Sequence record: ON286975
Origin: Escherichia phage I29
Length of the DNA stretch: 64,000 bases
Strand: one strand, 5' to 3'
Position numbers and translations under genes: made by a program. Below, in pieces: positions 13,576-40,475 of this stretch (positions are counted from its first letter, which is position 1; each line of letters begins with the position of its first letter). The notes beneath the pieces are model-generated. The model searched no databases, was not told the origin of the DNA, and worked only from the letters and a program-made list of their open reading frames with translations.

Positions 13576-16500
13576 TTAACGAGAAAAGGTTGCGTAGGCT
13601 TCTAGACGATACTGCTGGTCACCAGGGAACATAACACCTATAGAGGCTGTCCCTAGAATCCTGCCTTCCTTTCCAGACTCCATTCTGAACCCTACCCATC
13701 CTGAACTCCTTGCAGCCTCGATGTTGTCGCTATACCCGAAAGTGGCAAGATCGTCAACACCAGCCCCAAACAGCAACTGAAGCTGACTTCTAGGAAGCCC
13801 TATAATTTCAGGAATATACGCACCAAAGTACACCATCTGCCCTACCTTAGGACCGCTGCCGTACTCCATCGGTTTGCTTGTAGAGAAAGTCTTCATACCA
13901 GAAGTACCTGCCGGATTAGGGTATGCCCCGTTTGTTGCTGTACCTATCCACATTCTCCACTGTGGTGCCATCTGTTTGACAGTAAAAGATGTTGAAGACG
14001 TTTTGCGCCCTGCATCATCAGTAACTACAAACTTTATGGTGACATTCCCAGTAGCTTTAAATGTTACCAGCCCTGTGGCAGCATCCACTGTTGCAATGTT
14101 GGTATTACTACTTTCCCAAGTCTTTCTAATACCGGATACGTTGGAAGGGGTAATAGAAGGTTCCTGCATCTGCAGTTTACCACCCACAATCCCTATGCCG
14201 TTACCTGGATTATACAGCACACCAACCTCGTCTACAATGTTCCCTGCTTTGAGACTATACTTCCTTGAGAAGTTGTAGGTTCCGTTATAAGTGTGTGTCC
14301 CTGAGAAGGTGACATCTGCCTTCCCGTAAGAGATGCAAACCAAAGCATACTTCCTGTCAGGCAACGTTTCTCCAGTCTCTGGGTGAGTTTTACCCACCTG
14401 GAACACGCTCGGGTCAGTAGAGTCGTGACTATCGCTAATGGAGCTTGGACCGCCCATCAACTGTGACAAACAATTCCTTACCCATGTCCAGTTATTATCA
14501 CTGGAGAAGTCCACAGTCAAATCAAACACAACCCACTCATTCGGCTTCCACACAGGTGTTGCAATGGACTTGCCTGCACCGCCTCCTTGGAGTGTTGCCG
14601 ACTGTTCGGTGATCAGGGCCGCATAGGCCAGAGTCCCTAAACTCAGAGTCTGGCTTGCTGTCCTTACTACCTTAGAATCAGCATCTGTGAAGTTGTTGAT
14701 GATTTGGAATGTGCCATAAGTGTTTTTACAGGTAATTCTGGCGTTCAGTGTGTCAATCTTCCTCACATCTGCCATAGCAGTGTTAGACACAGAGAAGTCA
14801 GAAGCTTTAGCTGAGTTTGCCGCAACAGCAGGATCAACGTTAAGAGTTGCGTTGAACTGACAGGCAGGGGTAACCAGCAGCTTGTTATCACCTATTTGCT
14901 TCCATGAAACACTTTGAACAGGGAGATTCCATTTAATACCTGAGAAAACCTTAGCAACCCTTGGCCCCAAAGCTCCAGTCCTGTTGTCTTTACAGCACAT
15001 AGACATGGTGATCGTTGACGGAGTGGCCTGACCAAATAATTGCTGTGCTTTTGCAGAGGACATGGTGTAGAAATTGTCCTTAACAAACTCATCAGCGGCT
15101 AAAGATCCATCAGCCCTCCACCACTGGACCTGATACCCTGTTTTATCCCAGCCTCCAACCTGCTTCAAGTCCTCCCAAGAGATTTCCAGATCCCCCGTGG
15201 TAGGGTTGATTGCAGCAGTTCCTGGTGTACCGGATGACCACAATGGGATATCAAACCACGCAGGTTTAACAGATTGCACTGCATTAGGACCTATTGCAGC
15301 AGCAAGTTGTTGACCCATCAGCACGCGAGCATCTTTCACCAGGCCCCATTCTATCATAGACCCAGAGTAACCTTCTTTCTTGTAGGCAGAGGATCCGTTC
15401 AAATGGATGAGCCTGCTGCAGTCGAAGCCATACGCTCCACCACCGTTAGGATCTGCAAAGTTGGTTATGATTCTATCCCTAATATTTTTCCATGCCCTAC
15501 CTCCAATCTCGTAGTCATGGTCATAACATCTTTGCAACGTTGTCCAGCAAATGATTGCCATTCTTCTGCCGCCTGTGAACCCGAAAGCGCCGTCATTCAG
15601 CTCTTTCCACAGGTAACAGTTGGTTGTCCACATAGCCCTGTGGATATTGAACCAGTTTATAGATTTGGCTGAGTTGTTCCACTGAGTCCCAGGTAATTCA
15701 GGCCACACTGCATTGACTAGCATGTCCTCTGTACCGGCATCCATTAAGAAGCCTCTTACCTTCTTGCCCATACCTACCCTGTCTTTAGCAATCCAATTGC
15801 CAAACAGTCTCAGTTTTGGACCATAAACAACATCCTCTGGGTGCTCAAAAGAGACATACTTTAAGTAGATTGTTGGGTCACCGTAGGTGCCATCACAAAC
15901 ACTTTTGTGCATGTTTTCGCCAAGGTCTAGACGAAGCCCCGTCACTACTTTAGACGTGTCGGTGAATTTGTCTGTTAAGTCAAATTCATACCACCACCAC
16001 CCACCACCTAGCATAAATTTCTTGCATCGCACAGCGTCTGTGTCAGATATTCTCTTATCCCCTGCAAAAGGTGAATCAGCAAACTGATAGTGCAGAGCAG
16101 TCTCAAATAGGTGGGTGGAAGTTCCGTTCTCTGCAAGAACTTGCTTACCTATCAGATCGCACTTAATGATCATCACAACACGCTTGTATCCGTTTGTTAC
16201 CGGAACTTGCATAGATATGGATGTTCCATCCATGTTCGATCTTAGATCACTCATGATGATATAGGGGTCGACAGCGTTGCCTAAAGTTTCAGGCCCTGGA
16301 ATTATCTTGTATTTCTTGACCTGGCCCATAAATCTGTCACTGGCGTAAGTTGCAGCCTCAAAACAAGAGCCACCACCAGGTAATTCTCCAGGTCCCCAGA
16401 AAAATGCCCCATAGCAGTTATAGAACCACTTATTAGGGTCGTATTTGTTCTTGAAGGTCTGGACCTCGTTGGCCTGTTTTGTCAAGAAAACCTGCGTATC

Positions 16501-19212
16501 TGTAAAGATTGCAGGATTTACCCTTGCCTGACGCGGAGGGTAACCTGTAGTTTGGTTAAACCACAAATTACAAGAGTAATCCCTCATATAGTCATAATCA
16601 GAGTATTTGTTTACATCTTCGTTCCAACACATGTTTAGGTTGGTACCGCCCATGCATACAATATATTCTGCGACATACTTATCACTTCTGGTAGGAATAC
16701 CTATGAACCATCTGTTAACAGGCTCATCCCAAGCTGTGCGCTCATCTTTAACGCAGATAGCAATCCAGTCATGTGTTCCTGTTTTCTTGCACACATCTCG
16801 CTTCATACCGTAGTAGAACTCTTTAGTATTCGGCTCAGGTGCATTTATCAGATAACTCCATGCCTGATTTGCATAAGTCCCATTGGTGCGCGGATCATGA
16901 TCAAAGGCATACATGATGATCCTTTCCCCACCAAGATGTTCGCCAAGAGTAACTTTGACATTCACATCGCCGTAACCGTTGCGAACAACATCTATGTTGT
17001 CAATAGAGATGCCCCTAGGGGTGTAGGCAATTTTCAGGGAGTTATCCTCACTAGTGCCACCAAGGGTGATCCCTATGTTGTTTGTTGTCCCGTCGGCATA
17101 TCTTACTGTGGCTTCCCAGCGTATTCCGAAATATCCTGCATCATGGCTAACAATTTTCAGTGTACGAGCACCAGAGTTAGGTTTTCCAGGATCAGGCCAA
17201 GGATCTGGATGTTCATGGACAGTCAACGATGTCCCGTTTTGCTCGTTGACCTGCAACATTTTACCGCCTCTGCCGTTAGGGTTGAACTCCCACAAGGCTT
17301 GTGTTTTCACAACATTGTCATACGTGGTACGTCTCTGATCGTAGATCTCCTGAGTCACATCGTAGGTTACAGACCCGGCATCCATTCTATGGAGTCGTAC
17401 TATATACGATGTATCGCCTTCTACAGCAGGTTGAGCTGCGTTAAGCCCGAAGTATACAGTATCGTTGACATGGAACTGTTTGTTTCTACCGACAGTATGC
17501 CACTTGCCGTTGGACGGATACGCAGGAACTATGGTGTTCCAGTTCAAAGTCCTTGTCGTATGGGTTCTGCCTGTGCCATGCTTGTCATGATAGGTTATTT
17601 TTACAGAGTACAGGCCACGTCTGTTAACATTTCTGTTATACTGGGTAACAACAACTTCGTTGGCCCCGCCGTGGTTCCAGTTGGTGGAGAATTGGTAATT
17701 TGCATCTGTAACAACCGTACCTGCAGCATTTACCAGTTCAATCTTGTCAATAATGAACGTAGCCCCCTCTGGCTGAGGCTTCAACTTCATCTTGACCGTG
17801 TCACCAATGTAAATATTGCTAACGCTGCTAACACCGTTAACGTCGAAAATATCCTCAACACCCCAACTGTCTACCGGGACATTTTTATACCAATTCTCAG
17901 GAACCTCTGTGAACCCCTGGCTATTAAGTCTGCCTCCAAACAGGTTGTTAGAGCCTGCAAAACTTCCCCTTGGGATGCCTGACCACCAAAGTTTACCATT
18001 AACAACAGTAAAGGTCCCTAAGAAACCTTCTCTATGGATGCCTTGGAAATAAACACTCTCTGTCCAGCTAACTGGCAGGCGTTGCTCAACATATTTAGCT
18101 GTAGCAAGAGCTTGATAGTGGATAAAATCGGACCTAGGACTATTGTTTGCAGATTGTGCACCAATATCATTACACAAGTTGCGAGAGAATCCACGATACT
18201 GCTTGGTGCCATTATTGAAGAAAATGCCACTTGTGCCGTACCCACGAGCCATTATTACCTCATGGGTGTAGGTGATATTCAGTTCCCGCCATGTATCATC
18301 TCCCCAAATGTTTTGACCATAAAATACGTTAACAAGCTGCTGGTCATCGGGTCTATGCATCCTCTGTGTGGCAATTATTGCCCCGTTAGGACCGCACATA
18401 AACCCTTTCCACTCCTCATCTGCAGGAATGCCCCTCAAATCGTTACGAGTAATCTGCACAGGAGGCCAAACAAGGTCGTTTCTACTGTTATTTCTCAGAA
18501 AGTCGTATCCAGCAATCCAGAAACCTCTAGGACCACCGAAAATAACAGAGTTGTCATGCACCTCGCAGTTGATGCTTGGGTTTTTCCAAGGACCTGTTTC
18601 AGGATTTTCCGATGTCTCACCAATCTTTACAGGGGTTGCATGCTGATTTTTGTCAACATGAAGAGAGCCGTAAGTATTATTGCCAGAGCCGTACAGGTGA
18701 AGCATACCATCAGCCTCTGGTGCAGCAATTACCCACACTGTATTGTTTACGCCACCCATTACTTCAACAAGTCTCTCAGGATGGGTGTCCAAATGCAACC
18801 CTGTTACGATCTGTTCCGGCAAAGGTGTCCACTCTCTGACACAAACATCGTTTCCACCTGCTGCCTCCGATCCGATAAGACCAGCTGTGCAACCAATATA
18901 GAAAAATTTATTATCGAATGTGCGGATTACAAATGCACGGTCAGCTCTCCAAACATGGTCTACGTTCCAAGCTGCCTCATTAGGATAGTTTATTGTATCA
19001 AGATCTCCAGTCCGACACTCTCCGAACCTATTATAGCCAGTAATATTAAGCTGACCATCATCAAAAAGTATAGCTAAGCTATTTACATAGGATACTGTGT
19101 TGCTTGTACCATCACTGTTGTCTATTGGGTATGACAGAACAGCAAGTTCCTTAATTCCACCCCTCTTATCGAGGAAATGACGACCAAGTTTTAGCAAAGG
19201 GATTGGAAGCAT
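13576..19212 (-). CDS. giant virion-associated protein, 1878 aa (fibre/adhesin-like)
   Basis: Uninterrupted 5.6-kb ORF at distal end of the fibre block; N-terminal Gly-rich repeat segments of propeller type (LYGSGNNTYGSL); C-proximal Ig-like segment. Confidence 0.55.
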   Translation of the reverse strand: MLPIPLLKLGRHFLDKRGGIKELAVLSYPIDNSDGTSNTVSYVNSLAILFDDGQLNITGYNRFGECRTGDLDTINYPNEAAWNVDHVWRADRAFVIRTFDNKFFYIGCTAGLIGSEAAGGNDVCVREWTPLPEQIVTGLHLDTHPERLVEVMGGVNNTVWVIAAPEADGMLHLYGSGNNTYGSLHVDKNQHATPVKIGETSENPETGPWKNPSINCEVHDNSVIFGGPRGFWIAGYDFLRNNSRNDLVWPPVQITRNDLRGIPADEEWKGFMCGPNGAIIATQRMHRPDDQQLVNVFYGQNIWGDDTWRELNITYTHEVIMARGYGTSGIFFNNGTKQYRGFSRNLCNDIGAQSANNSPRSDFIHYQALATAKYVEQRLPVSWTESVYFQGIHREGFLGTFTVVNGKLWWSGIPRGSFAGSNNLFGGRLNSQGFTEVPENWYKNVPVDSWGVEDIFDVNGVSSVSNIYIGDTVKMKLKPQPEGATFIIDKIELVNAAGTVVTDANYQFSTNWNHGGANEVVVTQYNRNVNRRGLYSVKITYHDKHGTGRTHTTRTLNWNTIVPAYPSNGKWHTVGRNKQFHVNDTVYFGLNAAQPAVEGDTSYIVRLHRMDAGSVTYDVTQEIYDQRRTTYDNVVKTQALWEFNPNGRGGKMLQVNEQNGTSLTVHEHPDPWPDPGKPNSGARTLKIVSHDAGYFGIRWEATVRYADGTTNNIGITLGGTSEDNSLKIAYTPRGISIDNIDVVRNGYGDVNVKVTLGEHLGGERIIMYAFDHDPRTNGTYANQAWSYLINAPEPNTKEFYYGMKRDVCKKTGTHDWIAICVKDERTAWDEPVNRWFIGIPTRSDKYVAEYIVCMGGTNLNMCWNEDVNKYSDYDYMRDYSCNLWFNQTTGYPPRQARVNPAIFTDTQVFLTKQANEVQTFKNKYDPNKWFYNCYGAFFWGPGELPGGGSCFEAATYASDRFMGQVKKYKIIPGPETLGNAVDPYIIMSDLRSNMDGTSISMQVPVTNGYKRVVMIIKCDLIGKQVLAENGTSTHLFETALHYQFADSPFAGDKRISDTDAVRCKKFMLGGGWWWYEFDLTDKFTDTSKVVTGLRLDLGENMHKSVCDGTYGDPTIYLKYVSFEHPEDVVYGPKLRLFGNWIAKDRVGMGKKVRGFLMDAGTEDMLVNAVWPELPGTQWNNSAKSINWFNIHRAMWTTNCYLWKELNDGAFGFTGGRRMAIICWTTLQRCYDHDYEIGGRAWKNIRDRIITNFADPNGGGAYGFDCSRLIHLNGSSAYKKEGYSGSMIEWGLVKDARVLMGQQLAAAIGPNAVQSVKPAWFDIPLWSSGTPGTAAINPTTGDLEISWEDLKQVGGWDKTGYQVQWWRADGSLAADEFVKDNFYTMSSAKAQQLFGQATPSTITMSMCCKDNRTGALGPRVAKVFSGIKWNLPVQSVSWKQIGDNKLLVTPACQFNATLNVDPAVAANSAKASDFSVSNTAMADVRKIDTLNARITCKNTYGTFQIINNFTDADSKVVRTASQTLSLGTLAYAALITEQSATLQGGGAGKSIATPVWKPNEWVVFDLTVDFSSDNNWTWVRNCLSQLMGGPSSISDSHDSTDPSVFQVGKTHPETGETLPDRKYALVCISYGKADVTFSGTHTYNGTYNFSRKYSLKAGNIVDEVGVLYNPGNGIGIVGGKLQMQEPSITPSNVSGIRKTWESSNTNIATVDAATGLVTFKATGNVTIKFVVTDDAGRKTSSTSFTVKQMAPQWRMWIGTATNGAYPNPAGTSGMKTFSTSKPMEYGSGPKVGQMVYFGAYIPEIIGLPRSQLQLLFGAGVDDLATFGYSDNIEAARSSGWVGFRMESGKEGRILGTASIGVMFPGDQQYRLEAYATFSR

Positions 19213-19220
19213 TGTGTTCT

Positions 19221-19253
19221 CCAGATAAGAAAACCGCCCCGTCAGGAGCGGTT
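19221..19253 (-). terminator. intrinsic terminator-like hairpin
   Basis: Minus-strand AACCGC...GCGGUU stem followed by UUUCUUAU, between the 581-aa gene and the giant gene. Confidence 0.45.
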
Positions 19254-19262
19254 AGATATATA

Positions 19263-21008
19263 TTAACGTTGTGCAATTACTACGTCTACGATATCACCAA
19301 CACCACAATATGTTAATTGCAGCAAGGTAACACTATTAGCCTTGTTATTAATAACAGGCGTTGCCGACAGGATAGCATACTTATCGTGCAAAGTCACGTT
19401 GTGACCTACAGCATCCTGAATGACATAGATAACCGCAGTGAATGGATAAGGTTTATCTTCCGCTGATGTACCAGGCCATTGTCCTATTGTAAAATCCCCT
19501 TTCGCGTGGACAACATACATACTGGCCTGCCCGTTAGGTGTCCATGTCCCACTGGACGCGTCAACCTCCTCTAAATCAAAATCTACCTTTCCTGCGTGGA
19601 AAGTAGGGGCAGTAATGGTTTTACCCGCCTCAATTTCTTGAGAGGTGGTTATCTTGCCACTGGAGTTAATGCCATTACAAACAAAGTTGACATTAGAGAA
19701 GTCTGGCAGCCACCCAGTCACTGTGCCGGATATTTCAAGGTTGTGAAGGTAGGTGGTGCCCGTCCCTGCTGCGTTTAAACTAACATCTCCATTTACCTGC
19801 AAGTTTCTGGTAACGTTGCAGTTTTCAGAGTTTGCAGTTGTTGCAGTTAAAGTAGTGGTTGTCAGCTCGGTAATTACACCTTTGTTGGCTGTAAGCCCTT
19901 CCCCTTCAAAAGTTGCACGCTCATTGACTCTTAGGGTATTCAGAGCTATGTTTTGGATAGAGGCTGTACCTCGAATAACTACAGATCCGCCAACTTCTAA
20001 ATCACCATTTATTAATGCGTCCCCCGTGCTTTCAATATAGCTAGGGTAAATCATGGTGCCATCGACAGAGTAGGTTATCCCTGTAACAGTGCCTGTCACC
20101 TCAAGGTTCTTAACCCTGGTGGTTCCATCTACCTGCAATGTCGGTTCGGTTGCTGCCTTCATGGCATTACCACGAATGTACACGTAGTCAAAAAAGTTAT
20201 TACCTAGACCATCAAAATGCACATCGTTATTATTAGCCACTGGTTTCCCAGAAGTTATAGTGTCAGCTATAACCCTGTGGGTGGACACTTCATGAGGTTG
20301 CAGCTCTGTGCTTCTCCAGTCTGCATGCTTAGGATCACTCCACGCAAAAGTAAGTGTAGAAGTATTTGCCGTGAGGATTAGGTTCCTGAAGCGTGCAGTA
20401 GAATCTGCTCCATTAACAGACCCATGTAAGGTGAGTGTGCCACCAACTATAGTGTTAGCAAGTTCTGTAAGACCTTTTACCACCAAAGACCCTACAGTAA
20501 CTTTCATTCCCTCCATGGCTTCAAATATGCTATCCACATAGTCAACAACAAACTCTGTGTTTGCTATAGACTCGGATTTGTCGTCCATTGGAGGCGTAGG
20601 TACTCGCGGGTCACCTTCGAACCTCGGACTGTTAAGTTTTGCGTAGTATTTTGCCATTACTGCAGAATCGGTATATAATCTCCAGTTTGGAGATTGTGAA
20701 GGATCTGCTGGCATTCTAACCGGGTTAGATTTTGATGCTGCGGGAGCGTACCACCACTGAGGGCCTGTGTCCCCTTTAAACTCGTACAGCTGGTTAAAAA
20801 CTGTTGTGGATGCACCATACGCCCAAGGGATCGGTGGCGTTTTAAAATAAAGGGTGTCAAGCATGGCTTTTCGTACCGTAGGGATGGTGGTCCCATCCTC
20901 TACGACAACTTCATCCACAGCGTTACCGTTGACAATCAGGTGCAAACGCTCAGAATCAACAATTACTTGATCTACCGCCTGCTCAAAGCTTGTCATGTCT
21001 TGCGCCAT
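19263..21008 (-). CDS. tail fibre/spike-like protein, 581 aa
   Basis: Repetitive Thr/Gly/Asn-rich beta-type sequence typical of fibre shafts; located in fibre block. Confidence 0.45.
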   Translation of the reverse strand: MAQDMTSFEQAVDQVIVDSERLHLIVNGNAVDEVVVEDGTTIPTVRKAMLDTLYFKTPPIPWAYGASTTVFNQLYEFKGDTGPQWWYAPAASKSNPVRMPADPSQSPNWRLYTDSAVMAKYYAKLNSPRFEGDPRVPTPPMDDKSESIANTEFVVDYVDSIFEAMEGMKVTVGSLVVKGLTELANTIVGGTLTLHGSVNGADSTARFRNLILTANTSTLTFAWSDPKHADWRSTELQPHEVSTHRVIADTITSGKPVANNNDVHFDGLGNNFFDYVYIRGNAMKAATEPTLQVDGTTRVKNLEVTGTVTGITYSVDGTMIYPSYIESTGDALINGDLEVGGSVVIRGTASIQNIALNTLRVNERATFEGEGLTANKGVITELTTTTLTATTANSENCNVTRNLQVNGDVSLNAAGTGTTYLHNLEISGTVTGWLPDFSNVNFVCNGINSSGKITTSQEIEAGKTITAPTFHAGKVDFDLEEVDASSGTWTPNGQASMYVVHAKGDFTIGQWPGTSAEDKPYPFTAVIYVIQDAVGHNVTLHDKYAILSATPVINNKANSVTLLQLTYCGVGDIVDVVIAQR

Positions 21009-21017
21009 GATTTCTCC

Positions 21018-21284: not shown

Positions 21285-21295
21285 TTACCCTCTTT

Positions 21296-22342
21296 TTAAG
21301 CATAAGATATAGTGATCCATTGACCATTTACAAGTTTTTGGATAGCACCTGTCCAGTAATCACCTTGATAAGGGTGTTTATAAGCGTAGTTACCCGAGCA
21401 CATCACATGTCCAGGGTAGACTCTTGACTCTCTGTAGGTGGTTTTGAAACGGTTTGCTATCCTTACATCATCAACCCCTCTGCTGGGCATAGGGATAGTA
21501 AGGTTACCACTACTGTCTGCGCCGTTACCATTTACCCTGCGGACCACGTTTCTTCCACCAACTGTTGCATATTGACCCCTGACTGTTTCATCGTTACAAT
21601 CAACTCTTCCACCTATTTGAGCGCTTCCACAGGATTGTTGTCCATTAACAGTAGCTCTTGGTATCGTAACTGCATTGGCATTTGCAGAGGAACTTTTTGC
21701 ATCGTTGCATTCAAGATTTCCTTGGATAGCCAGTCTTGCACGGTTGGCAGTTATAGCATTGAGCTTCATAGCCGAAAACACAGGATGCCCGCCAGAAGGT
21801 TGAAATCTCCAACGGAACCCGTCTATTTGGTGAGAAGGATCATCAAGGTCTGTGCCGTCAGCACCACCGATGTTGTCCATAATCCAGAAGTCCATCGTCG
21901 TCTTGTCTGGAGTTATGGTGGTATATATTGCCGCATTGTCTGTTGACGCAGATGCAAACTCGATTCTTTGAAGGCCTAAAGTTTGAGTCTGAGTCATTAT
22001 GTCTCCAGACTTGTCAACATACAGATCGTCCATTTCTTCAGGCGAGTATACATTGAGAACTTGACGTGCAGCAGCTTTGTCTGGAACGTCTGCTAGATTA
22101 TTAGTGACCCTTAAGAATCTATTATCCCATCCTGGGACAACATCTTCTGTTAAATGCTTTAACCACGCAGAAAGCATGTGAAGTTCAAAGTTAACAACTT
22201 CACATGCCACTCTTTGTGTCATATCCCAACCTTTCAATCTCTCTTCTTTTTTTGGTTGAGACTTATTCAACTCTCCCGTATTTTCAAGCACAACATCCTG
22301 ATTGGCCCAAATATCAAGAGGGATAACTGGTTTAGTCATCAC
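21296..22342 (-). CDS. tail fibre protein (paralog A), 348 aa
   Basis: Paralogous to 23354..24394: shared N-terminus (PLDIWA / PLEIWA, KGWD) and C-terminus LQKLVNGQWIT. Confidence 0.6.
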   Translation of the reverse strand: MMTKPVIPLDIWANQDVVLENTGELNKSQPKKEERLKGWDMTQRVACEVVNFELHMLSAWLKHLTEDVVPGWDNRFLRVTNNLADVPDKAAARQVLNVYSPEEMDDLYVDKSGDIMTQTQTLGLQRIEFASASTDNAAIYTTITPDKTTMDFWIMDNIGGADGTDLDDPSHQIDGFRWRFQPSGGHPVFSAMKLNAITANRARLAIQGNLECNDAKSSSANANAVTIPRATVNGQQSCGSAQIGGRVDCNDETVRGQYATVGGRNVVRRVNGNGADSSGNLTIPMPSRGVDDVRIANRFKTTYRESRVYPGHVMCSGNYAYKHPYQGDYWTGAIQKLVNGQWITISYA

Positions 22343-22428
22343 GTTCTCCTGAGAAAATTCCTTAGGACTATTTTAACACTTTAGGGAACAAAATGCAAGA
22401 ACGGAGTCCTTTCCGTTCTGACCTTTGT

Positions 22429-22743: not shown

Positions 22744-22754
22744 AACACCTCCTC

Positions 22755-23339
22755 TTAGAGGGTAGGTCGCTCCGGGAAGAAAATGTCAGGGGCTTTAGAT
22801 GTATCTATTTCAAGAAGTTTTACCCTGTACATTTTCAAATCTCTGATGTTACGTTTCTGGTCATCAGTAAGATCATATTCAAGGTCAATCATGTCTTGAT
22901 AGGCACCAATTCTAGCAGTAGCCCAAGCAAGTTCTGTCTCTATGACACCCTCTGCCTGTTGAACAAAGAATTCATTGTCTGTGACAAATTCATCACCAAC
23001 TAAACGCAAAGCGTCGTGGTGAAGCATAATGTTTTCTGGTACCTCTTCTTTTTTGGCGATAACCACACGAAGACCTGGAGCAGGCCATAAGGCATCAGGT
23101 TCTTCTGTAGATGTCTTAAGAATTCCCTTCTCGTCAACAAGTAGGAAGATACACCCTGGATTTTCTTGTCGTAATGTTCGTGACTGCACATACCAATCAC
23201 CATCATCATTACGTAAAAAATACCCAGTGTATGCGGTGTAATCCTCGACCTCTTGAGGGGTCAGCTCCTTGGTTTCCTTGTTGGAGTAGTATTCGCCAGA
23301 TCCCGGTTGGTAAAGTTTAAACTCTTGAAGTATTTTCAT
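22755..23339 (-). CDS. tail fibre assembly protein (Tfa-like chaperone)
   Basis: C-terminal segment YRVKLLEIDTSKAPDIFFPERP resembles the conserved C-terminus of tail fibre assembly proteins; lies immediately downstream of a fibre gene. Confidence 0.6.
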   Translation of the reverse strand: MKILQEFKLYQPGSGEYYSNKETKELTPQEVEDYTAYTGYFLRNDDGDWYVQSRTLRQENPGCIFLLVDEKGILKTSTEEPDALWPAPGLRVVIAKKEEVPENIMLHHDALRLVGDEFVTDNEFFVQQAEGVIETELAWATARIGAYQDMIDLEYDLTDDQKRNIRDLKMYRVKLLEIDTSKAPDIFFPERPTL

Positions 23340-23353
23340 GCTAGTCCTCCGAT

Positions 23354-32373: not shown

Positions 32374-32810
32374 TAATACCTCCAGACATCAACAACGATA
32401 GAATCTTTCATGTCGAACATAAAGACCCCTTTATCACCTTTCGCCCAAATCTGGTTGTTCCAGAACACACCAGCGGTGAGCCCGTTCAGACCTTCGAAGA
32501 TAACAATATCGCCACGCTGAACCTGTTTAGGAGTATCTAGTCGAGTCATAAAGAGATCAAAAATAGTAGGCAGGTGTGTGGTTTTGAAACGGAGCATGCA
32601 CCATCTTTTGCTTTCCAACTCTGTTTTATACGTTCCTTCGAAGTTAGAAAGAAAATCTGTTCCGTATTGGGCATCAACACACTTAGCTGCAAAGGTGCAG
32701 CAATCGTGGAATCCCCATTCAAAAGGTATGGTGGCCTCTTCGTCAAACACTCTCCACAATCTTTCTTGCCAATCCACTAAACGAGGGTGTGTGCTCATTA
32801 AACCTCCCAA
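32373..32810 (-). CDS. tail-tip assembly protein, 145 aa (possible NlpC/P60-like)
   Basis: Position immediately upstream of J-like gene; FHDCC motif; assignment by synteny with lambda/GTA-type tail tip modules. Confidence 0.35.
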   Translation of the reverse strand: MGGLMSTHPRLVDWQERLWRVFDEEATIPFEWGFHDCCTFAAKCVDAQYGTDFLSNFEGTYKTELESKRWCMLRFKTTHLPTIFDLFMTRLDTPKQVQRGDIVIFEGLNGLTAGVFWNNQIWAKGDKGVFMFDMKDSIVVDVWRY

Positions 32811-33364
32811 ATGATCGGGCGGCTCGCCACCTGATCCACATATTTAAAAAATCTGTCATTATCGTTTCTTGAGCTGTGGCTTTCCTCCGTGTACCGATAA
32901 GGAAAACCTCTTAACCAGCTGTTGAAGATGGAAGAGATGGATATGGACAAAGCACTATTCTCACCTGTCTGAATAGCCATATCTGTTATAAGTCCGTCAA
33001 ACAAGCCATTAGTTGTAACAGGTAGACCATTCTCCATAGCGGTAATGTACAACGTGGCACGACAACCAGAATACTCCGTCTTCAGCAGATCACCCACATA
33101 CTTGGGATCAAACCCGTTTAATGTTGCTACCACAGATCCGAAGTTGGTGGCATCTTTCTCAGACACAGCAGTTAATGTTGCTGATCCACCTATCCCTATA
33201 AAATGTTGCCCCTCAATTACTACAACACCAGTGCCTGAGCACACTCTGACAGTTCCTGTCGGTAGCTCCAGCTTTGCAGCAATTAAGATCTCAACACCAT
33301 CAAGCTCCAGCTTTTCAAGAAATAAATTATCTAATGGCGCTCTGATCATCTTAAAAATCCTCAA
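32798..33364 (-). CDS. tail-tip assembly protein, 188 aa
   Basis: Second of three small genes upstream of the J-like gene. Confidence 0.35.
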   Translation of the reverse strand: MRIFKMIRAPLDNLFLEKLELDGVEILIAAKLELPTGTVRVCSGTGVVVIEGQHFIGIGGSATLTAVSEKDATNFGSVVATLNGFDPKYVGDLLKTEYSGCRATLYITAMENGLPVTTNGLFDGLITDMAIQTGENSALSISISSIFNSWLRGFPYRYTEESHSSRNDNDRFFKYVDQVASRPIIWEV

Positions 33365-33941
33365 AGAAGTTGATAACTATATTATCACCTTTTTGCATAG
33401 CATCGACTTTTTGCTTAATTTTATAAATATCTCTGATATGAAACCTACCCTTCGGAGATTGAGTTATTATCTTCATGGTGTCCCCTGCGGCAATAGGTTT
33501 TCTAAGTCTTGGAGATATGCCTATAACAGCAGACCCAACACCATCACTACGCACTGGAGCTGTTACCACTTTCAACTCATCGTTCACAGATATTTTATCA
33601 CCAGCTCTGGCTATGTCTCTGTTTGGCTCCCACCCGACCGTCTTCAAAAAATCGTCGTTACCAGTAGGCCCAAGGGCGATTGGCTCGTTAGCTGTTACAG
33701 AGTGACCGTAAGTTTTAATAAGAAAGATGTTCCCATCTTTATACACCTGATCAACAAAGCTCTTAAGCTCTAGCAACTGTGACTCGCTGATATTGGAGAC
33801 CGTCAAAGTGCCTTTCCAGTTAGGTGTGGCATAGGTTACTTTTTGCGTTTTACCTGTAAACGGACTTTTAAACGTAACAATATCTGCCAGCAGCTCCAAT
33901 CTAATATCTGGAAGGTATCTAGGCCTTTCCCATAAAAACAT
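33351..33941 (-). CDS. tail-tip assembly protein, 196 aa
   Basis: First of three small genes upstream of the J-like gene. Confidence 0.35.
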   Translation of the reverse strand: MFLWERPRYLPDIRLELLADIVTFKSPFTGKTQKVTYATPNWKGTLTVSNISESQLLELKSFVDQVYKDGNIFLIKTYGHSVTANEPIALGPTGNDDFLKTVGWEPNRDIARAGDKISVNDELKVVTAPVRSDGVGSAVIGISPRLRKPIAAGDTMKIITQSPKGRFHIRDIYKIKQKVDAMQKGDNIVINFFEDF

Positions 33942-34000
33942 TGTGCCTCCAGGTTAAACAATCATGATAGTTATTTTACCAGATTTTGAGTTAATACGCA

Positions 34001-34033
34001 ATACAAACAAAAAGCCCCCGCCGAAGCGAGGGC
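34001..34033 (-). terminator. intrinsic terminator, UUCG-tetraloop hairpin
   Basis: Minus-strand GCCCUCGC-UUCG-GCGGGGGC (34014-34033, one G-U pair) followed by UUUUUGUUUG, after stop of the 1266-aa fibre gene. Confidence 0.65.
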
Positions 34034-34040
34034 AAAACAG

Positions 34041-37000
34041 TTACTTCAGTTTCTCTTGCAACCCAGTAACAACCTCTGTCAATTTTTTAACCTGCTCCTC
34101 AAGGGCGGTTATTTTATCGTCCTGTTCCCTGCAAACCTGGACAAGCAAGCCTGTTACAGCTGCATAGTCAACGTTATAGAATCTTTCCTCAGTCATCAGA
34201 GGGGTGCCGTCTTGAGTAGGCCCTGGAACCTCTTTCCTTTGCACGAAAGACCCAACCGCTTCTGGTAATGCTTCCATAACTTCTTGAGCAATTACCCCTG
34301 CGTAAGGCATACCATTCTCTTTTAAAGTATAGGTATAGCCTTTCATCTTCCGGATAGCTTCTACAGCGTTAGGTATGACCTCGATATTATCCTTCAGGTC
34401 ACGGTCAGAACTTTGACTAACAGTGGTGCATTCTACTGCACCATTGACAGCAAAATATCTTGATTTGGCCTCATCTGTCTTGGCCCCGCAATGGAATACC
34501 CAGTTGGAGAGTGTTGAGTTATCACTTATCTGGAACTCAAGCACATTCTTCCGGTCTGCACCATTGCCCCAATAATATAACCTACCTGTATTAGCAGGTA
34601 TGTTGGAACTGTTGCCAACAGTAGCTCCGCCGCCAGTGTGGATTATAAACTCTGGGTCAAGATTCGAACCTTGAGTTTTCAAAGTGATCCCTTTGCCACC
34701 AAGCTGCTGCCAAGGTCCCCATGTGAAAACACTACCTATTGTTGTTCCATAACGCAGGAATTTTTCCCCAAGATATGATACATATTCCTGCACACAGCTC
34801 TCAGGCACGTTGGCGTAATTCCTGTACACAATAAGTGTACCTGCCTGAGCACAAGGGTAGTTTCTCTCCGGAGTGGCCTGAGCATTGGCCTCTTGGTGAT
34901 AAAAACCCTCTCTATCCCCTTTGTAGTCGTTAAGGTCATTAGTTCCCAACCCTTGACCACGGTGCTGAATAACTTTGTTCCACGCTCTGTGGTTTCCCTG
35001 CTCTATGGAACGAGTGTACAGCTGGTCTAAACGACCTGCCATCTGGAAAGCGTAGTTTCCAGAAAAACCAACCGACAACCCTGCTACAACCATGGAACCT
35101 TCAGGTCCGTTGACGTTACCAGCCATTATTTTAGAAGGGTTGTTATTTCCGAACTGGTTGTTCCAGTCTGCACCTGTGTGGCATACAAAACCACCAGGAG
35201 CTGAGAAAGTGCCATCTTTGTTGAAGTTGTAGAATTTGTGAGCAGAACCTACAACATCACGAACAATAACTTGACCAGCCTCTGGAGTAGATCTGAACTC
35301 TGCCTGTCCTTTGAGACCAGCACCATTACCGCATTTAGAGGTAAACGTACCGTTAGTCAGATCCTCTGTCCCATCTGATGCACACTGGAAGCCTGCATTA
35401 GAGAATAACGCCTTTCTAGGACTGCCGTAGCACAAATAGTTAAGACCGTCTGCCCATAGCTCGACTTTTGGCATATTCATTTTGCTCATCACAGCATAGC
35501 GTTCAGCAGTGCCTATATAGTGCCACTGTGTGCCGCCACCAGTGTAGAACCCTGAAGTCCCTTTGAAGTCAACAATAGGTCTGGTGTTGGTATTATTATC
35601 TCCAAGAACAGCAAGATTCAAATCTGCTGACTGGAGAGGTGCAACGAACTTAACACCGTCCTGATTGTCTGTTACAGAGCCAACCTGGTAATCTTGCTCC
35701 CTGGTAAACACCTCGACAACATTTCTACTTGCGTATATGCTGACAGGGAAAGCACGCGCCTCTGCATAGAAAGCAACATATTCTTGTTTACCCCTTGTTG
35801 GAGCAACCATCCCAAGAAGTGCTTTTTCATTCTGGTAGAAATTTACTACCCCGTAGAAAGAGTCTCCTCTGTCTGTCCAACCACCAGTTCTATAGTGACA
35901 CTGTAAGGTCGCACAGTTCATAGGGTCATTTCCAGATGAAGACCTGGTGACTATAGTAATATCTGTACCTGTCGAAGGGGCGTAATACGGATCTGTTCTA
36001 ACGATGATTGGGTAGTATTTCCCATCTTCCATCCCTGCGGTTCTTGGCAGTGTTAAGAAGTCTTTTACACCTGCTGCTATAGGAACTTTGAACAGATTCT
36101 GAGCATCTGCTAAAGTTGTAGCCCCAGTGCCACCTGCGGCTTGAGGTAGAGGTTCCCACTTGGCCTTCCGGTTGTTATAAACACCCCATTCAAGCGTTCC
36201 TTCACCTTGCTCGTCCATACCGCCATCCCAGACAACCATCTTGGCGGCTTTCTTGGACCCCCAGAAGCCTCTTTCTGCCCCTGAACTACGGATCCACTCT
36301 CCAAGTCCCCAGTTTGCCAGCTGACCGTTCAGATCACCAACCTGCATATATTTAGGACAATCTAAGACCCCATCCTCACGGAAGCCTAAATAGCTATGAG
36401 TTTCAGATCCTTTTGCGCCTTTGTGCAGGTGGATTGTCAACCAAGCCTTATTGTCGTTTCTTACCTCAGAGTAGATCCTATACCCATGCTCAAGGACACC
36501 GTCAGCGCCGTATTTATCCCCATGGAGAATACCTGATGGAGACTTAACCTCAGAAGTGCTTTGAGATAGGTAAAGGTGCCCGAAGGTAGGGGTATTTCTA
36601 GACCCGAGACCGATGTGCGATCTAAAGGTATCATCGTTACGAGGTCTGACCATCGGCTGCCATGCAGTCCACTGATTTGTGTTGGCCTGATAGGTTCTCA
36701 AATACCAAACATCTACGTTAGAGAATGGATAGTATTCCTGACGACAACCTGTACCGCCGTTAGCATTGTTCTGCCAGACAATCAAGTGACCAGCACCAGA
36801 ACCTGCAGGGTAACCATTTGCCTCAGTTGCATAAGCAGTCATCGGCTGGTAGTATACACCATCCTGATTACCAGTCAAGTTATTGATATTGAAATTTGGC
36901 TCAAGGGCTGCACGTTGCTTATAGAAAGCACCGATATTGATACGGACTCCAGCGGCATCTCTAGCCCCTGTGCCGCCTTGCTCTATAGCAAGAGGTTGCC

Positions 37001-37841
37001 ACGAAGCTGTTTGTTGGTTCCACATACCCCAACGGCCTGTTGCATCAAGCTGCAAGTACCCTGCCGTATTTAAATCATCTCCAGCACGGATAACTGTTCT
37101 TGTTGGGTTGTTTGCCTCTAGGCGTTTAAATTCATCACGAAGTGCTATTCTTTTCGTTGTTGCTACACCGTTGGTTACTGCAATGGTGTACATGGCTCCG
37201 GTGGTAGCGCCACGGAAAATACCATCAACAGTTGTAGTATCACGACGAGATACCACACCGTTCAGAAATTTTTCACCAGCTGCTACAGAAGGGTAGTTGG
37301 TAGTTCTTCCCTCTTCAATAACTGCAGGGCCAACAAAGTTATCAAGGTGAATAACATCGCCTACAGTGTGCACTGTACCAAAATCTACACGCTGTGCAAG
37401 TGCTTTGGCATCGTTAGCTGTCTGAACAGTAACATCCATTACATCCTGGACAGACTGCCCTTCGGCTGTCATGATCATAGATGCGCCAATGGTAGATTCC
37501 AGCTCCTCCCTTAAGGACGGGTCAGTATATACCATCCATGCAGCATCAGTGATCCCACCATCGGAGTACGGTGAAGACAGTGCAGGAACAGTGTGCGGAA
37601 ATTCGCCTTTCCAACGTAGGTAGAGGTCTTCCTCTTCGAAGTAGGCAAAATCCATTGGGCCGTTTAACTTACCACCTTCCTTAAAGGAGATTACATGAGA
37701 AACAGTCCCATCAACATGGACAACATCGCCAATTTTTACACGACGGGTCAGGTCTGGTTGTTGAACAACCAGGTAATCATCCTCTGTCACTGCGGTAGTG
37801 GCAGGAAGAGATTCAATTCTGACAACTTTAATATCAGCCAT
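34041..37841 (-). CDS. tail fibre protein with C-terminal intramolecular chaperone (S74-type)
   Basis: C-terminus DRDLKDNIEVIPNAVEAIRKMKGYTYTLKENGMPYAGVIAQEV matches the self-cleaving chaperone domain of tail fibres/endosialidases; Gly-rich shaft. Confidence 0.75.
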   Translation of the reverse strand: MADIKVVRIESLPATTAVTEDDYLVVQQPDLTRRVKIGDVVHVDGTVSHVISFKEGGKLNGPMDFAYFEEEDLYLRWKGEFPHTVPALSSPYSDGGITDAAWMVYTDPSLREELESTIGASMIMTAEGQSVQDVMDVTVQTANDAKALAQRVDFGTVHTVGDVIHLDNFVGPAVIEEGRTTNYPSVAAGEKFLNGVVSRRDTTTVDGIFRGATTGAMYTIAVTNGVATTKRIALRDEFKRLEANNPTRTVIRAGDDLNTAGYLQLDATGRWGMWNQQTASWQPLAIEQGGTGARDAAGVRINIGAFYKQRAALEPNFNINNLTGNQDGVYYQPMTAYATEANGYPAGSGAGHLIVWQNNANGGTGCRQEYYPFSNVDVWYLRTYQANTNQWTAWQPMVRPRNDDTFRSHIGLGSRNTPTFGHLYLSQSTSEVKSPSGILHGDKYGADGVLEHGYRIYSEVRNDNKAWLTIHLHKGAKGSETHSYLGFREDGVLDCPKYMQVGDLNGQLANWGLGEWIRSSGAERGFWGSKKAAKMVVWDGGMDEQGEGTLEWGVYNNRKAKWEPLPQAAGGTGATTLADAQNLFKVPIAAGVKDFLTLPRTAGMEDGKYYPIIVRTDPYYAPSTGTDITIVTRSSSGNDPMNCATLQCHYRTGGWTDRGDSFYGVVNFYQNEKALLGMVAPTRGKQEYVAFYAEARAFPVSIYASRNVVEVFTREQDYQVGSVTDNQDGVKFVAPLQSADLNLAVLGDNNTNTRPIVDFKGTSGFYTGGGTQWHYIGTAERYAVMSKMNMPKVELWADGLNYLCYGSPRKALFSNAGFQCASDGTEDLTNGTFTSKCGNGAGLKGQAEFRSTPEAGQVIVRDVVGSAHKFYNFNKDGTFSAPGGFVCHTGADWNNQFGNNNPSKIMAGNVNGPEGSMVVAGLSVGFSGNYAFQMAGRLDQLYTRSIEQGNHRAWNKVIQHRGQGLGTNDLNDYKGDREGFYHQEANAQATPERNYPCAQAGTLIVYRNYANVPESCVQEYVSYLGEKFLRYGTTIGSVFTWGPWQQLGGKGITLKTQGSNLDPEFIIHTGGGATVGNSSNIPANTGRLYYWGNGADRKNVLEFQISDNSTLSNWVFHCGAKTDEAKSRYFAVNGAVECTTVSQSSDRDLKDNIEVIPNAVEAIRKMKGYTYTLKENGMPYAGVIAQEVMEALPEAVGSFVQRKEVPGPTQDGTPLMTEERFYNVDYAAVTGLLVQVCREQDDKITALEEQVKKLTEVVTGLQEKLK

Positions 37842-37877
37842 TCTTTCTCCTGAAAGGGGGCAAACAGCCCCCCTATG

Positions 37878-40475
37878 TTAAAGGTACAATCCACGGTATT
37901 GAGCATAAAGGCCCAGACCGCGAAGGATTTCGCCAGAGTGATAGCCAACCGGATCAGAAACTGCCCAGCAGCCGTTTAAAATATTATCCCCATTAATGAA
38001 GTGGTGCTTTTGCAGTAGCTTCACACAGGCTTCCACAACAATATCTATTTGAGGTATTGTCTCTGAATACCCGCACAGACCTAGCCAGCAGCAACCTGCA
38101 AGCCATTCACCTACCACCCACATCCTGTCTCCTCTGTCCTGATAAGAATATCCCCCAGAGGTGTTAAAGTCTGTAGGCAGATTTCCTGAATGAGATGACT
38201 GGAATCTGTTGAGGAACCATGCCCATTTCTGGCAGAACAGGAATAGTCTTTCATCAACAGGTTCTTTATGTTTCTTGAGCTCATATATTGTGCGGCACGC
38301 AGCAACAAAAGATCTTGACTGGAGCTTAGAGTTATCTACCATCTCCCACCAACCAGTCAACCCTTCATTACCTCTTTGCCATACATAACGTGAGGCAACT
38401 GGACCCTCTGTCTTAAATGTATTATTATACCAGACTTGAGCGTCATACAGAAAGCCTATTGTATTTGACAATCTATGGCGATCTATGTTTTCTGCACCCA
38501 TGCAGTAGACTGCTGGGTATTGCATGCCAGGGTAGGGCCAATTTGGCCTTTCCTCTAAGAGATAGTTTTCCTTATCTATCACCTTTCCGGCAGGGAACAC
38601 ACCTGGTGTGTGCCTGTATGCACCTTGCTTGTAGTTTCTGACATAGCAATCACCAACCTTGGCGGTTGATTCTGTCTTGCTTGCCATCCATACGCTAAAC
38701 CAGATTAGATAAGCATCCCTATCTGCAATATAGAATTGCGGCAGTGTGTTGACGCAATATAGATCAAACAAGCCATTACCTATCTGCCTGTCGCTTAGGC
38801 TGAAATCTACAGAGGTGAGTCCCTTAGGATTAGCAAAGAAAGGTTTAATCTCTTCTTCAGTGTGATGAGGTTGTGTCGGATCTAGTTTGAAATCTCCTAG
38901 AGTAAGAGTTTCTGTTATCCATTGTCCATTAGTGGCATATAGATCAGCATACCATAACCACCTGTCTTTGTCAAGAAATTTGACCCTTACCATCTCATCA
39001 TCTGATCGATAAGTTACTGAGTTTAAAGAAATCTCTCTTCCAAAGTTGAAAGTTACTTTGCCTCTTGCTATATTACAACGGGTGAAGTTGTCAGAGTGGT
39101 TGTAAATGTCAGTATCGTACTGCATACTAACACTGGCACCACCGCTCACGGCAATGTTTTCCTCTTTAGGTAAGAGGTACGGATTACCGTCTTTACCAAC
39201 TACCTCTACGAAATCAGTAACCTTGGCAACTATTTCTGTTACCTCTGCCCCTCCAAAAGGAACCCCTATCCTGTACTGTTTTTTGTTATTGTTGCCATCA
39301 TTAAGGATGAAATGTGGCTGGAACAGAACCCCTTCTCCTCCGAAATTCATAACAATTTCAGCATCTCTGCCTATTTTGTATGTAGTCCCTTTTTGAATTA
39401 TTTCGCAAGGCTGGCGTGCGTTCATTCTAAAATTGATATACCCGTCACTGTCTCTGCTCATGACAGGAACTGTTCCTGCAACAAGACAAGTACCGTCTGT
39501 AAACGGTGCCTTAATCAACGTGGTCTTTCTAAACAACTTGTCGTAGGCGTTTATATCACTGAAATTAAGCAACTTGTTGTAAGACTGTTTAAACGCGGTG
39601 TAATACTTTTCCTCACCTGTCAAGGTGTAGAGTTGATAACAAGCGTCACACCACATTTCTTCCCCGTCCAACTCTGGGGCCTGATTATCTGCAACCACGT
39701 TTATAGGATTTACAATTACAGGGGATCCAGCAGGTATCACCGATCCACCCTGCTCTTGAGGTAATCTTACACAATAGGTCACCTTGTGGCTTCCTGTAAC
39801 ACCCTTATCTTGTAATTGGATTGTGCCGAACTCTATAGACGTATGCCCACTGTCGGCTATGCTCCCGTTAGCCCAATAGCGGTTACCATCCCATGCTATG
39901 TACCACTCAACCCACCAACTTAATCCTGATGTTGTCCAATCTGGGTTAGCATCTGTGCCACCGTAAACATCAGAGTCTACAGTGTTTCTTCCTAACACAC
40001 CGTTATACGCTTGGAATGCCTTGTCCAGGTATTCCCCCCATGTCGGAGATCCAGCTGGGATTTTTCCTCTACCGTTGGTAAAAGACACTACCACATCTTT
40101 AAACCCACCGTGTGATGGAACCCCATCTGTGGATAGAGGGTAGTGGGACAATCTTTGCATTTTACTTTCTACGGCATATGCACCCAGAAGATGACTATTG
40201 TAAGCTTCCCAAGCATCTTTTGCCCTATCCAGATAGAAATCGCTTTTCGATGCCCTGTATGCTTCAATGTATCCCAGAATCAACACAGCTTGGGACTCAT
40301 GCATTGCCCAATCGTTATTTATCTTATTACCTGCCCACCCTGCAGCTATAAGACCATCAGGGTTTACTAGCTTATTTTGTGTAGGTGTGTTGGTAATACC
40401 TGTGTTGTTATCGAGGCACTTCCTGTGCCCCTCAATCATCTGAAATACGTTATCAATGTTGTGTTGAATACGCAT
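37878..40475 (-). CDS. large tail-associated protein, 865 aa (possible glycan-active spike)
   Basis: Trp/Tyr-rich sequence with helical N-terminal segment reminiscent of alpha/alpha-barrel glycosidases; assignment tentative. Confidence 0.4.
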   Translation of the reverse strand: MRIQHNIDNVFQMIEGHRKCLDNNTGITNTPTQNKLVNPDGLIAAGWAGNKINNDWAMHESQAVLILGYIEAYRASKSDFYLDRAKDAWEAYNSHLLGAYAVESKMQRLSHYPLSTDGVPSHGGFKDVVVSFTNGRGKIPAGSPTWGEYLDKAFQAYNGVLGRNTVDSDVYGGTDANPDWTTSGLSWWVEWYIAWDGNRYWANGSIADSGHTSIEFGTIQLQDKGVTGSHKVTYCVRLPQEQGGSVIPAGSPVIVNPINVVADNQAPELDGEEMWCDACYQLYTLTGEEKYYTAFKQSYNKLLNFSDINAYDKLFRKTTLIKAPFTDGTCLVAGTVPVMSRDSDGYINFRMNARQPCEIIQKGTTYKIGRDAEIVMNFGGEGVLFQPHFILNDGNNNKKQYRIGVPFGGAEVTEIVAKVTDFVEVVGKDGNPYLLPKEENIAVSGGASVSMQYDTDIYNHSDNFTRCNIARGKVTFNFGREISLNSVTYRSDDEMVRVKFLDKDRWLWYADLYATNGQWITETLTLGDFKLDPTQPHHTEEEIKPFFANPKGLTSVDFSLSDRQIGNGLFDLYCVNTLPQFYIADRDAYLIWFSVWMASKTESTAKVGDCYVRNYKQGAYRHTPGVFPAGKVIDKENYLLEERPNWPYPGMQYPAVYCMGAENIDRHRLSNTIGFLYDAQVWYNNTFKTEGPVASRYVWQRGNEGLTGWWEMVDNSKLQSRSFVAACRTIYELKKHKEPVDERLFLFCQKWAWFLNRFQSSHSGNLPTDFNTSGGYSYQDRGDRMWVVGEWLAGCCWLGLCGYSETIPQIDIVVEACVKLLQKHHFINGDNILNGCWAVSDPVGYHSGEILRGLGLYAQYRGLYL

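Follow-up and report, generated by a model that had tools for sequence, protein, structure and literature searches.

Phages related to rV5 belong to the coliphages that are isolated most frequently, and biocontrol and therapy cocktails make use of them. Their virions have been reported (PMC8594841) to carry three co-expressed sets of lateral tail fibers together with short fibers, encoded by a locus that was given the epithet “nanosized Swiss army knife” and was tied to an exceptionally broad lysis host range. Three large fiber genes in this locus are allelically variable, and most of the locus is conserved. In the related phage phi92, cryo-electron microscopy (PMC13450770) revealed a single baseplate that bears three fiber types, with six trimers of each. 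Here we examine the corresponding locus of Escherichia phage I29 (record ON286975). It lies within a stretch of 64,000 nucleotides (nt), hereafter called the window, at positions 13,576 to 40,475, and it contains eight large open reading frames (ORFs), including one that encodes a giant protein of 1878 amino acids (aa). A previous reading made without database searches (the sequence-only reading) had interpreted all eight products as parts of an exceptionally large receptor-binding repertoire.

Published genetics (PMC8594841 and a 2026 preprint) had already linked two components of this locus to host receptors. The 690-aa protein (rV5 gp34) binds a conserved glycan receptor, given as enterobacterial common antigen (ECA) or the N4 glycan receptor (NGR), and short fibers bind the lipopolysaccharide (LPS) core. 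It was the 2026 preprint that re-assigned the conserved glycan to NGR, and its recognition was pinned on the N4-gp65-like domain of a fiber protein found in all these myoviruses.

The locus is a known multi-fiber module

The window represents the first 64 kb of a Vequintavirus (rV5-like myophage) genome and starts at rIIA. In a megablast search, positions 13576-33000 (19.4 kb) were at least 80% covered in 103 phage records, all of them from genomes that belong to Vequintavirus or are so labeled. The match is 95-99% identical for 97 of these records, and the top match is phage inoa (98.3%). Positions 34041-41145 exhibit similarly high nucleotide identity to Vequintavirus genomes. Moreover, the gene order from gp27 to gp43 is collinear, almost to the base, with the rV5 gene table (Table S3) and with curated BASEL annotations. 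The ORFs of 1878, 581, 348, 346, 690, 1199, 1266, and 865 aa correspond one-to-one to rV5 gp27, 28, 30, 33, 34, 37, 41, and 42. All eight were recovered in an ORF scan on the minus strand, exactly where the sequence-only reading had placed them. The block is very probably the conserved baseplate-periphery and tail-fiber module of Vequintavirus. For the more inclusive explanation, in which a known, co-expressed multi-fiber module is accompanied by an accessory giant protein, we estimate a probability of roughly 0.8.

Several expectations derived from the sequence alone are consistent with these findings. A multi-fiber adsorption apparatus is borne out by homology, and it is a published hallmark of the rV5-like group (PMC8594841, PMC13450770). 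The proposed broad host range agrees with the broad lysis host range published for rV5-like phages (PMC8594841). The description of one strand-consistent block of fiber genes holds for the eight large ORFs, but baseplate wedge genes, a fiber-assembly chaperone, a Dit-like protein, and small membrane proteins are interspersed among them, and a ninth, small fiber-type gene (222 aa, Tail_spike_N, 40477-41145) is located just past the end of the block.

Direct homology supports a role as fiber or receptor-binding parts for six of the eight proteins, namely a phiTE-type long fiber, two short-fiber paralogs, an N4 gp65-like glycan binder, a lambda-J-like protein, and a fiber with tailspike-N and S74 domains. 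The count of eight receptor-binding proteins is not supported: the multi-fiber block stands, but the giant is probably not a core fiber and the 865-aa protein has no recognizable binding or enzymatic domain. This count is also at odds with the published genetics, according to which these phages are effectively monovalent on K-12, using one glycan receptor plus the LPS core. As a whole, the sequence-only interpretation is partly supported.

Proteins with recognizable roles in adsorption

The long fiber, the short fibers, and the glycan binder are encoded together with a chaperone and a baseplate protein.

19263..21008, minus strand: 581-aa fiber (rV5 gp28; phrog_4549; PDB 9cuy_g)
21296..22342, minus strand: short tail fiber paralog 1 (rV5 gp30, 348 aa; phrog_4465), 43% identical to the 346-aa paralog
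22755..23339, minus strand: tail fiber assembly chaperone (rV5 gp32, 194 aa; phrog_136, E 1e-36; Caudo_TAP in rV5 Table S3)
23354..24394, minus strand: short tail fiber paralog 2 (rV5 gp33, 346 aa; PDB 9cuy_c; Mu fiber 5yvq)
24407..26479, minus strand: 690-aa protein (rV5 gp34) with an N4 gp65-type NCTSP N-domain, a TIM barrel, and Calx-beta
26479..27165, minus strand: baseplate protein (rV5 gp35, 228 aa; phrog_4056, E 1e-102)

The first ~325 residues of the 581-aa protein match a 793-aa tail-fiber chain of phage phiTE (9cuy_g, E 6e-77), and its orthologs carry the new Pfam families Phage_phiTE_241_N/C. From these family matches, we infer that 9cuy_g is likely the phiTE long fiber, whose N terminus, in the published description of the phiTE baseplate, bundles with the C terminus of the sheath initiator and with wedge 2A. 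[quoted passage not shown] Its paralog, gp30, has a published HHpred match to T4 gp12, and the gene for the Caudo_TAP-type assembly chaperone is situated between the two short-fiber genes. Because the 581-, 348-, and 346-aa proteins are homologous to fibers modeled on the phiTE baseplate (Vequintavirinae, 9cuy), their placement in the virion is supported. The 690-aa protein matches Pfam TIM-barrel_NCTSP (E 4e-80) and PDB chain 9lc0_M.

Upstream of these genes lie the J-like gene and three small genes.

28774..32373, minus strand: lambda-J-like protein of 1199 aa (rV5 gp37); Ig_J domains, Phage_Tail_Tip, and an extended coiled coil
32373..33941, minus strand: DUF6950 protein (145 aa; Pfam DUF6950), tail protein (188 aa), and Dit-like “distal tail protein” (196 aa), with matches to phrog_2048 and phrog_1302

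The name “J-like” proved apt. Pfam Ig_J/Ig_J_second and a C-terminal Phage_Tail_Tip domain score above their cut-offs on the 1199-aa protein (105 and 131.7 bits), which also matches lambda J in the PDB (8iyk_J, E 2e-27). Equivalence to full-length lambda J is not supported by NCBIfam lambda_TipJ, for which the score is 153 bits versus a cut-off of 1950 and only residues 497-1037 align. At least three length alleles of this gene exist among relatives (3600, 3840, and ~4146 nt) that differ in the central coiled-coil region, and the window carries the shortest, encoding 1199 aa compared to 1279 aa in rV5. The J-like gene and the three small genes (28774-33941) together make up a tail-tip cassette of the siphovirus type, embedded among the baseplate genes of a myovirus, and PY54 homologies for this cassette are given in rV5 Table S3.

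The remaining genes encode a fiber with an exchangeable tip and two further proteins.

34041..37841, minus strand: lateral fiber of 1266 aa (rV5 gp41); adaptor domain of the tailspike type at the N terminus, S74 intramolecular chaperone at the C terminus
37878..40475, minus strand: 865-aa conserved tail protein (rV5 gp42; phrog_2871, E 0), kept across relatives
40477..41145, minus strand: 222-aa small fiber or adaptor (rV5 gp43) with Tail_spike_N

As the sequence-only reading had recognized, the 1266-aa protein carries a chaperone domain: Peptidase_S74 scores 52.4 bits (cut-off 22) at residues 1145-1196, and Tail_spike_N is also present. The N-domain of this protein matches tailspike N-domains in the PDB, and in many relatives the distal ~270-330 aa are swapped for other alleles. 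The product of gp43 is 38% identical to gp41 residues 7-105, such that the two proteins have an N-terminal domain in common. In an all-versus-all BLASTP comparison within the window, this relationship and that between gp30 and gp33 were the sole links, which confirms the assertion that the giant has no counterpart among the other proteins. The 865-aa protein has no sequence match in Pfam, NCBIfam, or the PDB, so labeling it as receptor-binding is unsupported; it may instead be a fiber scaffold. Public labels that assign an “intimin domain” or a “glycosidase domain” to the giant, the 581-aa protein, and the 865-aa protein could not be reproduced with Pfam or NCBIfam.

Virion proteomics, which the sequence-only reading had named as the way to refute its assignments, is weakly informative in the form of the published rV5 data. 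The rV5 mass-spectrometry table includes 19 proteins, four of which derive from this block. Detection of gp41 is robust, with eight good tryptic peptides, but the evidence for gp27, gp34, and gp37 is weak.

The sequence-only reading also considered that host range might be switchable, an idea that stems solely from the number of fiber genes. Switching could occur by DNA inversion, as with Mu Gin or P1 Cin, or by targeted hypermutation through a diversity-generating retroelement. A repeat scan of positions 13000-41500 revealed no invertible segment and no pair of template and variable repeats; the sole inverted repeat is a hairpin in a baseplate gene. All the genes are on one strand and are served by late promoters, and the fibers are published as co-expressed and occur together on phi92 virions (PMC8594841, PMC13450770). 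With nothing found in its favor, switching by either route is extremely improbable.

The giant protein combines a predicted propeller-like N terminus with Ig-like domains

The giant gene and the modules of its product are as follows.

13576..19212, minus strand: giant 1878-aa protein (rV5 gp27), in a family of its own (phrog_15684)
17893..19212, minus strand: RCC1-like beta-propeller module at giant residues ~1-440, predicted from profile homology
14014..14169, minus strand: Big_2 Ig-like domain at giant residues 1682-1733 (Pfam; AlphaFold2)
13576..13956, minus strand: exchangeable C-terminal module (~127 aa, last 381 nt) with two alleles in Vequintavirus (record alignments)

The Ig-like segment noted in the sequence-only reading is a Pfam Big_2 domain (residues 1682-1733, 35.3 bits versus a cut-off of 22.8), for which AlphaFold2 gives a predicted local distance difference test (pLDDT) score of 84-95. 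The propeller-like repeats that had been proposed are supported indirectly, by homology to RCC1 tail proteins of 830-890 aa, but the giant's own hit to RCC1-like beta-propeller models (Pfam PF00415 / PF25390), at residues 45-199, is below threshold. On WD40_RLD the giant reaches 21.3 bits where 150 are required, and on RCC1_2 it reaches 13.9 bits where 22 are required. The shorter relatives score 24-31 bits on Pfam RCC1 (cut-off 21.7) and also bear Big_2. When compared by hhalign, residues 1-496 of the giant align with residues 1-449 of these relatives with a probability of 99.9 (E 8.6e-32), and a tblastn search with giant residues 1-197 yields identities of 30-44% to phAPEC8/phi92-like and GAP31-like phages. 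In those phages, the short homolog is the terminal “tail protein” of the fiber operon. On the basis of these alignments, the giant is an expanded version of the protein type that occupies the same position in sister genera.

Between the propeller and the C terminus, the giant is restricted to its lineage. The family is very narrow: 5.8e9 proteins contain 15 clusters of it. When 1.84e9 representatives were searched exhaustively by HMMER with residues 1-1200, eight hits were obtained, which comprise the family and the 830-890-aa proteins that share its N terminus, and in this search residues ~200-1200 matched nothing outside the family. Sequence and profile searches of the PDB with the giant found nothing beyond Big_2-level matches. 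After this lineage-restricted middle come C-terminal beta-sandwich domains that resemble Ig-like folds and carbohydrate-binding modules (CBM). Among uncultured relatives, the N-terminal ~1430 residues are conserved and the C-terminal ~450 are divergent. Among Vequintavirus genomes, many records match the giant gene only from query position 382 onward, and the C-terminal 289 aa fall into two groups (≥95% and ~80% identity).

The “intimin domain” label was rejected for the giant. The NCBIfam intimin match spans 39 residues at 22 bits (cut-off 1400) and corresponds to this Big_2 domain, and the PDB intimin match is limited to one Big_2 domain (E 0.003). Two long antisense ORFs on the plus strand inside the giant gene, 16771-17982 (403 aa) and 18034-19077 (347 aa), are judged to be chance ORFs because neither a relative with 94% identity nor a divergent homolog has them in unfragmented form.

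Given these folds, one possibility is that the giant decorates the capsid or neck as a fiber that functions like Hoc, promoting adherence to mucus or environmental surfaces. However, the giant lacks a detectable capsid-binding domain, solved decoration proteins are matched only marginally (E 0.26, on the Ig domain), and the structural matches are to the generic Ig fold. In addition, the gene resides at the end of the fiber operon, far from the head genes, and its short homologs are annotated as tail proteins. A decoration fiber is thus quite unlikely.

The giant gene is set apart from the fiber genes and is repeatedly disrupted

Three elements bear on the expression of the giant gene.

13538..13559, minus strand: intrinsic terminator after the giant stop codon (9-bp stem with six G-C pairs, followed by a T-run; rV5 t027), which closes the late structural operon
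19232..19253, minus strand: strong intrinsic terminator in the 50-nt gap between the 581-aa and giant genes (rV5 t028)
22369..22379, minus strand: late-promoter motif (motif match; equivalent of rV5 P030, rV5 Table S4)

The motif is predicted to drive gp30, gp29, gp28, and, by read-through, the giant gene. No late-promoter motif is present between position 22369 and the giant gene, the nearest being this one upstream of the 348-aa gene. Because a terminator precedes the giant gene and it has no late promoter of its own, its expression should require read-through and hence be attenuated. For gp27, the rV5 virion data contain three non-tryptic peptides with low scores, which amount to 3.1% coverage.

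These observations raise the possibility that the giant is a non-virion late protein, such as a binder of debris or receptors released upon lysis, or a factor that acts at the cell surface. The weak, non-tryptic rV5 peptides are at the level of clearly non-structural proteins, the gene is dispensable, and the terminator separates it from the fiber genes. However, RCC1-domain proteins were detected in virions of the related phage W70 with hundreds of spectra, the gene is co-oriented with and adjacent to the fiber genes in all relatives, and several annotators apply the label “structural protein” to it. We consider a non-virion role improbable, if somewhat less so than a decoration fiber.

At least six cultured relatives carry independently broken copies of the giant gene: three have a nonsense mutation, two a frameshift, and one a deletion of 2946 nt.

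nomine: W82 changed to TAG
ECP26: Y617 changed to TAG
phita32: Q1439 changed to TAA
ime: 2 nt deleted at codon 1052
naswa: 1 nt deleted at codon 763
APCEc02: frameshift and a 2946-nt deletion that removes residues ~434-1415

When both genes were scored in one sample, the giant gene proved to be broken in 7 of 43 cases and the J-like gene in none of 43 (Fisher p = 0.006; length-aware binomial p = 0.03). Phages V18 and Alma were left out of this evidence: the J-like gene is broken in them as well, so their assemblies seem to be error-prone. The genes for gp41-43 are intact in ime, ECP26, and APCEc02. No suppressor tRNA is encoded in the window's tRNA cluster. Uncultured relatives at 45-54% identity retain full-length giant ORFs of 1940-1976 aa in exactly the same synteny. 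As a separate observation, the APCEc02 deletion leaves a propeller plus a C-terminal Ig region, an arrangement like that of the 830-890-aa homologs of phi92/phAPEC8-like phages.

The giant is tentatively viewed as an accessory adhesin

Given the terminator upstream of its gene, its marginal detection by mass spectrometry, the repeated disruptions in isolates, and the full-length ORFs kept by uncultured relatives, the giant is probably not a core fiber. Because the gene is kept in nature but repeatedly lost in viable stocks, and because its product has folds of glycan-binding types, we tentatively favor an accessory adhesin that is dispensable in the laboratory. More specifically, the giant could be a habitat-specific, low-copy virion appendage with an RCC1-like propeller as its anchor and CBM- and Ig-like domains for display, which would be under purifying selection in natural, probably gut, populations and repeatedly lost in culture. 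We hold this fuller version equally tentatively, at somewhat less than even odds.

The BASEL annotation of “lateral tail fiber protein with intimin domain” implies a different role, in which the giant is a genuine lateral tail fiber or receptor-binding protein that forms one of the three six-fold sets and shapes host range. Its gene is the last of the fiber operon, the position held by the 890-aa “tail protein” in phAPEC8-like phages. The conserved N terminus, divergent C-terminal ~450 aa, and two-allele end module form a pattern of the receptor-binding type, and the BASEL study (PMC8594841) reported allelic variation in three large fiber genes. Against this stand the independent knock-outs in viable isolates, the terminator immediately upstream, and the marginal mass-spectrometry detection. 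Moreover, the giant has no recognizable signature of a trimeric fiber, beta-helix, or chaperone, and the basis for its “intimin domain” is the 39-residue Big_2 match. A lateral-fiber role is unlikely, although we regard it as less so than a role outside the virion.

Several points weigh against the accessory adhesin and the broader explanation of which it is a part. The report that defined the three lateral fibers (PMC8594841) left open which protein forms which fiber. The giant's propeller depends entirely on sequence-profile homology, given that an AlphaFold2 model of residues 1-960, built from a 16-sequence alignment, is unusable (mean pLDDT 41). The CBM-like similarity of the giant is to generic beta-sandwiches with moderate Z scores. 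Its rV5 peptides are no better than those of rIIA or RNA ligase, and so provide no direct virion evidence. Some of the disruptions may be sequencing errors, as might apply to the single-base deletion in naswa, which lies in a G-run. Finally, the giant is intact in most isolates, including all BASEL phages, which were grown on K-12, and its loss is therefore not strongly favored in culture. A literature search found no functional study of this protein.

A working model for the adsorption apparatus

Homology and published genetics suggest the following model, which is inferred throughout. The 690-aa N4-gp65-like protein would bind the conserved surface glycan as the primary receptor. The 1266-aa fiber, its exchangeable distal tip freed from the S74 chaperone, may address variable glycans together with the 222-aa adaptor-like protein. 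The 581-aa fiber would be fixed to the wedge and the sheath initiator, as is the phiTE long fiber, and the two short-fiber paralogs, docked on the wedge, would make adsorption irreversible by binding the LPS core. A further appendage could be formed by the J-like protein with its Dit-like cassette. The giant, made at a low level through terminator read-through, might serve as an auxiliary adhesin whose targets would be glycans present in the natural habitat or on hosts other than those used in the laboratory.

Other features of the window and related records

Two further features are relevant to the interpretation of this record.

27177..28668, minus strand: Baseplate_J-like wedge gene (rV5 gp36), split into ORFs of 426 aa and 125 aa; the gene is 1491 nt and intact in relatives
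60519-61331, minus strand: tRNA cluster for Pro, Met, Thr, Ser, Tyr, and Arg; a further tRNA-like call (60764-60862) is 99 nt long and has an anticodon of four bases

The frameshift in the gp36 gene comes from a perfect inverted repeat with arms of 56 nt (27341-27396 and 27429-27484) and a 32-nt loop, in which ~39 nt of native sequence have been swapped for the reverse complement of a downstream stretch, with one base added. This hairpin is found in none of 108 matching phage records. It represents either a template-switch mutation or a snap-back or assembly artifact, in an essential gene.

The large terminase subunit is encoded by one continuous ORF of 515 aa (57868-59415, minus strand), an intron-less allele. 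The rV5 gene is in three segments, split by introns and an HNH homing endonuclease. Furthermore, across the fiber locus this E. coli rV5-type phage is matched at 95-98% identity by 16-18 GenBank records that bear the name “Campylobacter phage” and give Campylobacter jejuni as the host. Their host labels are probably wrong, or the sequences are from contaminating coliphages.

Significance

The many-fiber apparatus is already recognized as the basis of the broad lysis range, and our findings add nothing new at that level. Two points are of use. One is that receptor binding should not be assumed for every one of the eight proteins. The other concerns the giant, the largest of them, which accounts for 4% of the genome, is functionally uncharacterized, is confined to this lineage, and seems to be optional in culture. 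Should its importance be limited to natural habitats, stocks without an intact gene (nomine, ime, ECP26, phita32, and APCEc02) may behave differently in vivo, and its loss would be relevant to the choice of therapeutic isolates. On the accessory-adhesin view, the giant would be a functional analog of Hoc carried on the baseplate or tail, and a so far overlooked factor in the in vivo fitness of one of the most commonly isolated coliphage groups.

Comparison with known systems

T4 Hoc and other Ig-like accessory proteins are non-essential in culture, are built from Ig domains, and are thought to provide weak adherence to glycans. The giant is likewise dispensable in the laboratory and has Ig-like arrays. 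It differs in being ~5 times larger than Hoc, in carrying an RCC1-like propeller, and in being encoded in a fiber operon, and apart from the fold the two proteins show no sequence homology and have no capsid-binding domain in common.

In Pectobacterium phage phiTE (Certrevirus; 9cuy/9mjn), the N-terminal anchors of a fiber chain (9cuy_g, taken as the long fiber) and of the short fiber show homology to the anchors of the 581-aa protein and the 346/348-aa proteins, respectively, so that docking sites for them have been solved on the wedge and the sheath initiator. In contrast, the distal parts differ, phiTE is flagellotropic, and its fiber set is simpler, with J-like, N4-gp65-like, and giant proteins unreported.

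The phi92/phAPEC8-like phages (Justusliebigvirus and Phapecoctavirus) similarly have co-expressed fiber sets on one baseplate, an N4-gp65-like binder, and one related short fiber. The N-terminal propeller of their terminal “tail protein” is homologous to that of the giant. However, this protein is just 830-890 aa and consists of the propeller and Big_2, with or without DUF285, but without the ~900-aa middle of the giant. Moreover, phi92 has an endosialidase and a colanidase, both of which are absent from the window.

The closest systems are the rV5/Vequintavirus loci themselves, including those of BASEL phages such as HeinrichReichert and of the Danish isolate inoa, which have the same gene order, gene sizes, terminators, and late promoters at 95-98% nucleotide identity. 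The giant gene of inoa is 99.98-100% identical to that in the window, whereas inoa, ime, nimi, and others carry a distal-tip allele of the 1266-aa fiber that differs from the one described here.

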